A stretch of 64,000 nucleotides of DNA, taken from assembly GCA_010015585.1 (NCBI GenBank), contig ML975158.1. One strand, given 5' to 3'. The stretch comes from Eremomyces bilateralis CBS 781.70 (Eukaryota). Below the pieces are notes generated by a model. The model was not told the DNA's origin and made no database searches. It worked only from the letters and a program-made list of their open reading frames with translations. This document shows positions 11,296 through 13,753 of the stretch, piece by piece. The first letter of the stretch is position 1. Each line of letters starts with the position of its first letter. The translations under genes were made by a program, and so were the position numbers.

Positions 11296-11948
11296 ATGCC
11301 TAACACGCTCACCGTGAGCAAGAATGGCAGGCGGAGGAGATCCAGCAGTCTCATGTACACCGAGCCTCCGGAGTCGCTGGAGCAGCTCAGCGACCAAGCT
11401 TCCCTCCCCAACCTAAATGCGGAATGGGTCAACGCGAAAGGTCAGTCATGCCGGTGATAGCAAAGTCCTCGTTGCTGATCTGAAATGTCAGGCGCATGGA
11501 TCATCCACCTCGTCCTCATCTGTTCCCTCAAGATCTTCTTCGACATCATCCCCGGAGTCAGTCAAGAAACCTCATGGACCCTCACCAACATCTCCTACAT
11601 GTTCGGCTCGTACATCATGTTCCACTGGGTCCGAGGCGTCCCGTTCGACTTCAATGCAGGAGCATACGACAACCTCAACATGTGGGAGCAGATCGACGAC
11701 GGTGACCAATATACGCCGGCGAAGAAGTTCCTGCTGAGCGTCCCGGTCATCCTCTTCCTGATCAGTACCCATTACACGCATTATGATTTCACATATTTCA
11801 TGATCAACTTCCTTGCGACGCTTGCGGTTGTCCTACCTAAATTACCATGGGTACGTTCGATTCTTCCTAAGGAACGATGGATGCTAATATCACACAGAGC
11901 CATCGGCTACGATTTGGATTGTTCTCGGGTCCTCCTGAAGATAGGTAA
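11296..11948 (+). CDS. ORM1: ORMDL-family sphingolipid regulator
   Basis: RRRRSSS, NLNAEWVNAKG|AWIIH, FHWVRGVPF, MWEQIDDGDQYTPAKKFL, STHYTHYD and PKLP. Two introns. Confidence 0.95.
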
Positions 11949-12612
11949 CGCAATGGAGAGGTGGACATGGAGTTTGGTGTGCTGGCTCATATTGCATTGT
12001 TTGGCGTTTTAAAGATACAGTCCATGGGAACGGTCCAGCCGAAGTGATGGAGAGGGATAGGACGTGTCTGACCTCGAAACTCACCATCACACCCTTGACG
12101 CTCGGTGTACGGACACTGGGTGGGACGTGGACAGATTGGCAATGGTCTGGCTCCTCGCAACCTACATGGGGGGCACATTGGTTGTCCTTTGTTCTTCTTG
12201 GCTCTATTGTAACATGCGAATGGACAATAGTAGCTGAGGGCGAGCCAAATGGACTTGCGCTTTGATAACTGGACACCTGGGTTATTATTGGCGCTCCGAT
12301 GTGGCATTTACATGTAGCTTTCCACCCTAAACAGTGTGAACTCTTTCTTAATGCAATATATAATGTATGGCGGTGGCTATTCTCTGCGGAATATTGGCAG
12401 CAGCACCTCCTCAAACCTCCTTTACGAATATTCAGCCATGCACGTGACAATCCCGTTTCGGCCAATCAGATCTCGCCATTCCTCACCTCCAAACTTTCGA
12501 TATCCAGAGTCGCGAGAGAGGGAATCCTGATATACTGCCCATCAGCCCATTCGACTTCAAGCCCTTCTTTCCAAGCCTATTAAGAAGTTCACGTCATAGC
12601 GATCAATTCAAG

Positions 12613-13404
12613 ATGCCGAAATATAAGTCTCCCCTCCCTTCTCCTCGATCGCTACTAACAACCTGCACTCTTCTGTAGGTGTTCTCCCACGACGGCGACG
12701 CGATATTCTAACCCACGCAGGCGACTACTGCGATGTCTACCTCACCCACGACTCCATGAGCGTCCGCAAAGCCCATAACAGCGGTCGCAACCACCTCCGC
12801 AACGTCGTCGACTACTACAACCGTGCGTCCCTCCCTCCGCCCTTCACCGCCTTGTCGCGATTGCTAACACCTCCGCGCGCAGAAATCGGCCAGGAGCAAG
12901 CCCAAACCGTCATCGACTCCATCACAAACTCCTACGCCGCAGAAGGCCAACAGGCCTCGAATCCCCTCCTCCAAGCCCCCGGCGGCCTCGCCGGTGTCGG
13001 TCCCAGCGCAGGAGGTTTCCCACCACCCTTCTCCTTCCCCGGTATGCTCCCCCCCTCTCTCTATGTTTCCTATCTAACGTCACCCAGGTCACCCAGGTAT
13101 GCCACCCCCTCCCTTCGGAATGCCCCCCGGTCCCGGCGGCTCGCACCCGAACCTCCCGCCGAACCTTCCCTTCCCACCCCCGAACATGCCGCCGGGCGCA
13201 CTACCCTTCCCGCCGCCGTTCCCGCCCAATAGCGCGGGGTCGCCGGGCGCGGGGATGCCGTTCCCGCCGCCGCCGGGCGGGCTGCCGCCGGGGTTCCCGA
13301 TGCCGCCGAATATGGGGATGGGAGGGCCGGGGATGCCGCCGGGGTTTCCGCCGGGGATGATGGGAGGGCAGCAGCAGCAGCAGCAGGGGCCGCCGGGGTC
13401 ATGA
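12613..13404 (+). CDS. YHC1: U1 small nuclear ribonucleoprotein C (Yhc1/SNRPC)
   Basis: Exons 12613-12622, 12669-12674, 12721-12822, 12883-13041 and ~13088-13404 give [38 protein letters not shown] (matrin-type Zn finger) plus a Pro/Gly/Met-rich tail. Confidence 0.95.
12623..12668 (+). other. Non-canonical AT-AC spliceosomal intron with U2-type signals
   Basis: Starts ATAAGT, has a TACTAAC branch site at 12653-12659 and ends TGCAC. Its removal together with the GT-AG intron 12675-12720 restores MPKFFCDYC. Confidence 0.85.
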
Positions 13405-13753
13405 GGTGGATGGGGGATTGGGTAAGGATGAATATCACTTGGGGTGGATGCCGCGAGGCGGGGGAATCGTGCCGTCGAGAGGAGAGGGAAGGATGGGTTG
13501 TCGAGATGGCGACGTGAGCACGATATGTATCAGGTTGTACCAAACAGGGACCCTGCGCGCGGTGATACGACGGGCAGGCGCAGAAGGATGCCACAATGCG
13601 AACCATATGCTGGAGATGCAGTGGAGATGGGCTGAAAGCAAAGGGTCTCAACCCCCTTCATTAACACCAGCAGACCACGAATCTGCAAAGAACCCTAATC
13701 TTACGAACCCCCAAATAATACAACCACTTCCAAGCAAACTGACAGAGAAAACC

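Follow-up and report, generated by a model that had tools for sequence, protein, structure and literature searches.

The stretch of DNA analyzed here (64,000 nucleotides [nt] of contig ML975158.1, assembly GCA_010015585.1, from Eremomyces bilateralis CBS 781.70; referred to below as the window) contains, at positions 12613–13404 of the + strand, a gene which is, by its sequence, that of U1 small nuclear ribonucleoprotein (snRNP) protein C (U1-C; Yhc1 in yeast). The gene, which looks single-copy, was modeled with five exons, whose coding sequence of 594 nt specifies a protein of 197 amino acids (aa) with 0 internal stops. The main subject of this report is its first intron, which has AT-AC termini and is followed by a microexon.

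All features of the gene lie on the + strand. Exon 1 (12613–12622) consists of ATGCCGAAAT, read as ATG CCG AAA T, i.e. Met-Pro-Lys and the first base of Phe4. It is followed by intron 1 (12623–12668; 46 nt; ATAAGT...TACTAAC...CTGCAC), which has AT-AC termini with the acceptor CAC and a TACTAAC branch site at 12653–12659, the branch A (12658) being located 10 nt from the last intron base. The microexon (12669–12674; 6 nt, TCTTCT) completes Phe4, encodes Phe5 and supplies the first base of Cys6. Intron 2 (12675–12720; 46 nt) is of the GT-AG type (GTAGGT...CTAAC...CGCAG, with CTAAC at 12708–12712) and starts with a GTAG motif (12675–12678) which, together with the microexon, reads TCTTCTGTAG/G. 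Exon 3 (12721–12822), covered by an RNA contig, starts with GC GAC TAC TGC, contributes the rest of Cys6 and continues to ...DYYN. An earlier note on this DNA had read exon 1, the ATAAGT...AC intron, TCTTCT and the GTAGGT...GCAG intron from the letters alone, and its borders proved exact.

A match to the zf-U1 domain (Pfam PF06220) was found in exon 3 (12723–12821; E 2.1e-17, 63 bits, cut-off 22). Exon 3 alone fills profile positions 7–38, but not 1–6. Since exon 3 begins at position 7 and the N-terminus of the solved human U1-C reads MPKFYCDYC (the relatives found in the PDB were human and yeast U1-C), six residues must come from upstream. Alignment to the human protein places the first zinc-binding cysteine among them. 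A homologue with MPKFFC (P0138) covers zf-U1 positions 1–38, while models without MPKFFC start at position 7. In 78 of 80 related loci, exon 3 is preceded by the motif ATGCCNAART (the remaining two are cut by a contig end), and the complete zinc finger, with MPK[FY][FY]C at zf-U1 positions 1–6, was obtained only with the model containing the AT-AC intron and the microexon.

If donors are GT or GC, acceptors AG and introns no shorter than 30 nt, 13 one- and two-intron models in all lead from the ATG to exon 3; each was enumerated, and 0 gave MPK[FY][FY]C. The claim that no GT-AG model produces this N-terminus therefore holds, but three of the 13 that do stay in frame had gone unmentioned: GC12665-AG12720, a model giving MCDYC, and GT12627-AG12678 combined with GT12681-AG12720. 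When borders were searched regardless of dinucleotides, four models gave MPK[FY][FY]CDYC, and only the AT-AC plus GT-AG combination has known splice dinucleotides at both introns. It is nevertheless conceivable that the gene uses canonical sites only, either GC12665-AG12720 (a 12-residue insertion) or two introns flanking a 2-nt exon (MPKYKCDYC). Both of these models stay in frame in the window, and gene predictors yield similar ones in other species (P0004, P0009, P0109). We regard this alternative as highly improbable: the donors used (GCACTC, GTCTCC, GTTCTC) are poor, the GC/GT dinucleotides and the frame that the models need are not conserved in other AT-AC loci, and their products lack the conserved Phe-Phe and would leave zf-U1 positions 1–6 unfilled. 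Stwintron-like or recursive pathways with GT-AG sites alone were also considered, and none of them yields MPKFFC. An intron with the GT within ATAAGT as its donor and the AG within GTAG as its acceptor was likewise rejected, being out of frame and having, after that GT, bases which are not donor-like in other lineages.

The 3′ part of the gene consists of intron 3 (12823–12882; 60 nt, GT-AG), exon 4 (12883–13041), intron 4 (13042–13087; 46 nt, GT-AG) and exon 5 (13088–13404), which encodes a proline-rich tail and ends with a TGA stop codon (13402–13404). Sequencing run X3 is RNA-derived: its contig skips 12823–12882 and 13042–13087, while the DNA runs do not. This E. bilateralis contig thus confirms introns 3 and 4 (joints 12822>12883, absent from the DNA runs, and 13041>13088) and, together with translation of the full model, exon 4. 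Its first letter, 12721, coincides with the predicted start of exon 3; such a contig start at an exon border is expected of a de Bruijn assembler that meets more than one upstream context, and we take it as a weak hint only. The DNA contigs of runs X1 and X2 show 0 differing letters over 12450–13700, though both runs may be the source of the assembly.

The best database match is the public protein of E. bilateralis CBS 781.70 (P0001; labeled “partial”). Its sequence, beginning at DYC, is that of the window translation, but it reads through intron 4 into a frame-shifted tail. Since the X3 contig splices 13041 to 13088, the real C-terminus is proline/glutamine-rich. Intron 4 has two in-frame acceptor AGs 9 nt apart (13086–13096; CACCCAG/GT occurring twice in succession), the first of which is used in the RNA contig; use of the second would remove three residues. 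Intron 3 is in frame and stop-free, and its retention would add 20 residues without truncation. Read-through linkers resembling a retained intron 3 are present in several public models of other species.

An open reading frame (ORF) located upstream of the U1-C gene (11479–12012, +) may encode a membrane protein of the ORMDL/Orm1 type, to judge from a resemblance. None of the 80 related loci shows it in synteny with U1-C, and comparison of the flanking ORFs of the window gave no matches in these loci.

The first intron in related fungi

A metagenome scan with the homologue alignment detected the 80 U1-C loci mentioned above, which were parsed from ATGCCNAART to exon 3 together with the window (81 loci). 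An AT-AC intron 1 accompanied by the microexon and intron 2 was present in 29 of the 81 (window included), and an AT-AC intron 1 without intron 2 in two. Intron 1 was of the GT-AG type in 27/81 loci and of the GC-AG type in 2/81; the mixed combinations AT-AG and GT-AC were found in 0/81. Neither intron was present in 18 loci, one (L059) lacked intron 1 and contained intron 2, and two were cut by a contig end. Among the 60 intron-1-bearing loci (AT-AC 31, GT-AG 27, GC-AG 2), the first and last bases of the intron covary perfectly. After merging of near-identical loci, 44 sequence groups remained, of which 18 were AT-AC, 19 GT-AG and two GC-AG.

The microexon (TCTTYT, TTTTCT or TTTTTT) was found at the same place in all 43 loci containing both introns. 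In an alignment of 18 diverged AT-AC representatives (A2), the intron is invariant at +1A, +2T, +5G and +6T, at three branch-site positions (CT.A) and at the terminal AC; bases of the exon and microexon are invariant too, while the intron interior has diverged. The persistence of splice signals amid a diverged interior indicates more than chance. The length of intron 1 ranges from 46 to 57 nt, and the distance from the branch A to the AC is 10–12 nt in 18 of 18 AT-AC groups.

Several variants of this region were observed. Two sordariomycete-like loci, L034 and L052, have a GC-AG intron 1 (GCAAGC and GCACGT donors, respectively), so that, depending on the fungus, this orthologous intron is GT-AG, GC-AG or AT-AC. 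The 18 intron-less loci (L056–L058, L060–L070, L075, L077–L079) read ATGCCNAARTTCTTCTGC or ...TACTTCTGY, and at least 10 of them are situated on contigs longer than 15 kb and are thus genomic. Locus L053 (1430–1508), which is genomic and placed on an 87.8-kb contig, has kept the AT-AC intron and lost intron 2. It contains a TAG 3 nt upstream of the terminal AC (CCTAGCAC/TCTTCTGC), and use of that AG would give an in-frame MPKSLFC.

Summed tblastn scores gave useless taxon labels (owing to the proline-rich tail), and comparison of the exon-4 peptide, complemented by a further protein search, was used instead. E. bilateralis itself is a dothideomycete according to its lineage record. In three AT-AC loci (L008, L010 and L013) the exon-4 peptide is identical to that of Cenococcum geophilum, five loci (L032, L048, L049, L055 and L059) are Aureobasidium-like, and the nearest relative of L071 (AT-AC) is the pleosporalean Paraphaeosphaeria. 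Two further AT-AC loci, L004 and L033, are Eurotiales-like, carrying the IGQEK...NPAM signature common to Penicillium and Aspergillus; the top named matches of L004 are Penicillium/Aspergillus models, and its C-terminus shows 60% identity over 98 residues to a Penicillium protein. To judge from these peptides, the AT-AC state is common to Dothideomycetes and Eurotiomycetes. A GT-AG intron 1 was found in loci with leotiomycete-like (SSSNPMLGQNPG) and sordariomycete-like (AHANPMLPQNQPG) signatures. The earlier note had proposed to examine the conservation of ATAAGT...AC and the microexon across Pezizomycotina; the AT-AC termini prove to be kept in Dothideomycetes and Eurotiomycetes, and the leotiomycete-like and sordariomycete-like loci are GT-AG.

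Two of the Aureobasidium-like contigs, L055 and L059, throw light on the splicing of this region. They are 97.2% identical to each other over 941 nt, and the proteins they encode share 97% identity with an Aureobasidium protein (over 106 and 117 residues, respectively). Both are considered cDNA-like (resembling complementary DNA) because intron 3 is missing from them, while their genomic relatives L048 and L049 carry it. L059 reads ...ATGCCGAAAT/TCTTCT/GTAGGT..., i.e. the AT-AC intron is gone and intron 2 is retained. In L055, ATAAGT...CTAC is retained and intron 2 has been spliced, joining TCTTCT to GCGAT. Together, the two contigs show both microexon junctions, with the AT-AC intron removed exactly at the predicted borders, and they show that either intron 1 or intron 2 can go last. 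The junctions are those of the AT-AC and microexon model and not those of the canonical models described above.

The same structure is reflected in annotated proteins. Among 120 listed homologues, the N-terminus is MPKFFC directly before DYC in 66 and MPKYFC in four; three have MPKC (microexon skipped), four MPKYK..., reading into the ATAAG donor, two begin at DYC, 14 start after the cysteine pair and 27 have other N-termini. The MPKYK... read-through models come from Aureobasidium, Saccharata, Penicillium capsulatum and Aspergillus terreus, and P. rubens has MPKYN. The N-termini MHSFVG (Penicillium sp.) and MHSSVG (the onygenalean Polytolypa) are translations of ATGCAC, TCTTYT and GTAGG read in succession. 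The models of Sphaerosporella and Pyronema are labeled “partial” and have DYC as their first residues. Of 35 Aspergillus/Penicillium models (P0024, P0030, P0123–P0186), MPKFFC is present in only three, those of P. coprophilum, A. luchuensis and A. novofumigatus. Fourteen begin downstream of the cysteine pair (MSVRK), one begins at DYC, three run into the AT-AC intron and a further 14 are wrong at the N-terminus in other ways; in total, 32 of these 35 named Eurotiales models are wrong or truncated at the N-terminus. Predictors restricted to GT/GC-AG introns cannot build the first zinc ligand of U1-C. A few database records, to judge from the three models with MPKFFC, probably contain the AT-AC splice implicitly.

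These comparisons also bear on the simplest objection, namely that the AT-AC termini result from an assembly or sequencing error or that the gene is a decaying pseudogene. The rarity of AT-AC introns is the sole point in favor of this view. Both non-canonical ends recur in 30 further loci from many contigs and samples, the X1 and X2 DNA runs agree with the window (of which they are possibly the source), the gene is transcribed with introns 3 and 4 spliced (contig depth ~499), and the 197-aa ORF is intact. The probability of an error or pseudogene thus appears vanishingly small, and the comparative data effectively refute it.

Intron class and proposed splicing pathway

The donor of intron 1 (12623–12628) is ATAAGTCT (ATAAGT), which matches CAG/GTAAGT at 6 of 9 positions, and /ATAAGT is described as a strong consensus of U2-type AT-AC introns (PMC5029451, PMC1557818). 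The U12-type donor /ATATCCTT (or GTATCCTT) is not matched by the window, and an ATATCC donor was found in 0 of 18 AT-AC groups, the nearest being ATATGT in L004. Similarly, the U12-type branch site TCCTTAAC is not matched: the window has GCTACTAAC, and CTRAY is present in all AT-AC groups. The assignment to the U2 type and not the U12 type, made in the earlier note from the ATAAGT donor, the TACTAAC branch site and the lack of U12 motifs, is thereby supported. U12 splicing is reported as missing from Ascomycota/Pezizomycotina (PMC2846911). From the motifs and this reported absence we infer that the major spliceosome (U1/U2/U4/U6, not U11/U12) is used.

Taken together, the data make it probable that the single-copy-looking U1-C gene has as intron 1, directly before a microexon, a genuine AT-AC intron of the U2 type (type II), and that this is an old state, preserved by a mutational lock, for which no regulatory role is needed. 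According to the proposed pathway, U1 would pair with ATAAGT at +2 to +6 and at -2, and U2 with TACTAAC. The second catalytic step would then join exon 1 to the microexon, with the first-base A and the last-base C replacing the usual G...G contact, and the ordinary GT-AG intron 2 would be removed downstream of the microexon. The excision of intron 1 would also be expected to proceed in this manner in E. bilateralis itself. The AT-AC state may be an old substitution of an orthologous GT-AG intron; this direction is a proposal, and either state may be ancestral. It would be kept mainly because mutation of a single end would break an essential gene. This epistatic (two-mutation) lock could account for the conservation of AT...AC, since reversion needs two simultaneous changes.

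Several points weigh against this reading. The junction 12622>12669 was looked for in run X3 and not seen, no contig of that run covering 12450–12720. L055 and L059 come from a metagenome contig collection, and their cDNA nature was deduced from missing introns and not from a label. The unnamed loci were assigned to classes by peptide similarity to named proteins and not by a tree. The 18 AT-AC groups probably represent one ancestral switch whose maintenance has been observed many times, and not 18 origins. Finally, the GTAG at the start of intron 2, which is invariant in AT-AC lineages, is not explained by a simple frozen accident.

Possible coupling of introns 1 and 2 and proposed autoregulation

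The intron 2 donor starts with GTAG (GTAGGT, GTAGGC, GTAGGA or GTAGAT) in 16 of 16 AT-AC groups that contain intron 2, compared with 0 of 9 GT-AG groups with the microexon (Fisher p ~5e-7, uncorrected for shared ancestry). As a control, the intron 3 donors of AT-AC lineages were inspected and proved variable: the 17 donors comprised 12 different hexamers, and two began with GTAG. Read-through models from AT-AC lineages likewise encode ...VG (GTAGG) at the start of intron 2. Core splice signals aside, this motif is the one additional feature that is conserved, and through it an AG lies 10 nt past the AC of intron 1. A role for its TAG as an in-frame stop was considered and rejected, as the frame depends on the length of intron 1, which varies between 46 and 57 nt.

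The sequence TCTTCTGTAG/G is a textbook-looking 3′ splice site situated past the AC, to which a role in the splicing of intron 1 may be ascribed. Our preferred guess is that early recognition of the 3′ site of an intron ending in AC depends on an AG close by. A single case fits such a need: L053, which alone among the genomic AT-AC loci lacks intron 2, has a TAG shortly upstream of its AC. In a stronger form of this idea, the AT-AC intron and intron 2 would constitute one coupled unit, GTAG serving both as the intron 2 donor and as a surrogate AG 3′ site for U2AF-like factors that cannot read AC; we regard such coupling as possible but rather unlikely. If the introns were coupled in this way, removal of intron 2 first would eliminate the AG and strand intron 1 in a dead-end, stop-containing RNA (like L055), and removal of intron 1 first, as in L059, would be the productive order. 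The two donors, separated by 52 nt, would compete for U1, and the output of U1-C would in this way be tied to U1 snRNP activity, giving a concrete form to the feedback idea of the earlier note.

Spelled out, that idea is that a weak AT-AC donor would sense the activity of U1-C or the U1 snRNP, productive splicing of the U1-C mRNA falling at low and rising at high U1-C levels (or the opposite), and that transcripts retaining the intron, which contain an early stop, would be degraded, so that a feedback loop would be formed. The underlying prediction that retention of intron 1 leads to a TAA (12776–12778) applies if intron 2 is spliced; with both introns retained, the stop is the TAG at 12676–12678. 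The ORFs resulting from in silico retention comprise 39 codons (intron 1 retained) and 21 codons (both retained). With +1A left aside, the agreement of the donor with the U1 consensus (6 of 9 positions) equals or exceeds that of the other three donors of the gene (5, 4 and 6).

Autoregulation of this kind is in keeping with the function of U1-C in 5′ splice-site recognition, with the early stop created by retention of intron 1, and with the assembly of a relative's transcript that retains intron 1 and is otherwise spliced (L055). The break of the E. bilateralis RNA contig at 12721, as expected with more than one upstream context, is a further weak hint, and the AT-AC state is old, being kept across two fungal classes. 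Unproductive-splicing feedback is, moreover, described for other spliceosome proteins (PMC5473595, PMC4379411).

Nevertheless, we consider the sensor distinctly unlikely. If +1A is disregarded, no other donor of the gene matches U1 better, and the U1-pairing positions -2, +2, +5 and +6 are invariant across the 18 AT-AC representatives, while GT-AG lineages tolerate donors such as GTAATT, GTAATG, GTACGT and GTAAGC. This pattern looks like compensation, i.e. selection for strong and not weak U1 pairing. Beyond splice signals, no conserved element was found in the interior of intron 1 among the 18 representatives, and no stable RNA fold was predicted around the introns (z = +0.37). An isoform retaining intron 2 is present as well (L059). 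In leotiomycete-like and sordariomycete-like loci the intron at this site is GT-AG or intron 2 is missing, other loci have neither intron, and the two-mutation lock accounts for the conservation without any function. A G-to-A change at +1 is known from yeast genetics to interfere mainly with the second catalytic step and not with U1 binding, which also counts against a sensor. No support for the sensor idea was found in the literature searched. Autoregulation is thus a hypothesis that the sequence data neither directly support nor refute.

Comparison with known systems

The known feedback loops of U11-48K/65K (PMC5473595) and of SR proteins (PMC4379411), as presented in these papers, resemble the case of U1-C in that they involve splicing-factor genes whose mis-spliced forms carry premature stops. 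They differ in having conserved regulatory elements and a demonstrated dependence on factor level, whereas no such conserved element was found in the U1-C intron.

U12-type AT-AC introns share with the U1-C intron the terminal dinucleotides and a short distance from the branch site to the 3′ end (10 nt here), but differ in the donor (ATATCCTT, compared with ATAAGT) and the branch site (TCCTTAAC, compared with TACTAAC).

U2-type AT-AC introns are very rare: Table 1 of PMC1557818 gives 24 among ~608,000 U2-type introns of five model species. Those of the human SCN4A/SCN5A type, as characterized in the same paper, have AT...AC termini, /ATAAGT, a U2-type branch site, no U12 motifs and long-range conservation of their borders, as does the U1-C intron. 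Unlike them, the U1-C intron occurs in filamentous ascomycetes, is 46 nt long, is followed by a 6-nt microexon and an invariant GTAG donor, and has as its host a gene encoding a 5′-splice-site recognition protein. The fungal U2-type AT-AC introns mentioned by Sheth et al. (2006; PMC1557818) are only hypothesised cases in xylanase genes, and AT-AC junctions as a class have been reported from RNA sequencing of Fusarium and Trichoderma. No description of an AT-AC intron in a U1-C gene was found in the literature searched. The U1-C intron is therefore a well-documented addition to a known, very rare intron class, and its strict co-conservation with GTAG is a new observation. Its presence also explains why most public U1-C models are wrong at the N-terminus.

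The AT-AC intron described here, a constitutive intron of an essential gene, has been preserved in at least two fungal classes. Together with its GT-AG orthologues in sister classes, it forms a natural matched pair with which the handling of A...C termini by the spliceosome can be studied; the fungi concerned are reported to lack a minor spliceosome and are genetically tractable. An experimental parallel is found in engineered yeast introns: according to Parker and Siliciano (1993; cited in PMC5029451 and PMC1557818), the effect of a first-base G-to-A change in the major spliceosome was suppressed when the last base was changed from G to C. The yeast double mutants were reporter constructs, whereas the U1-C intron is natural and constitutive and belongs to an essential gene; its covariation across fungi (31 AT-AC, 0 AT-AG and 0 GT-AC) is the evolutionary counterpart of the A1/C-last double mutants, as these are portrayed in the citing papers.

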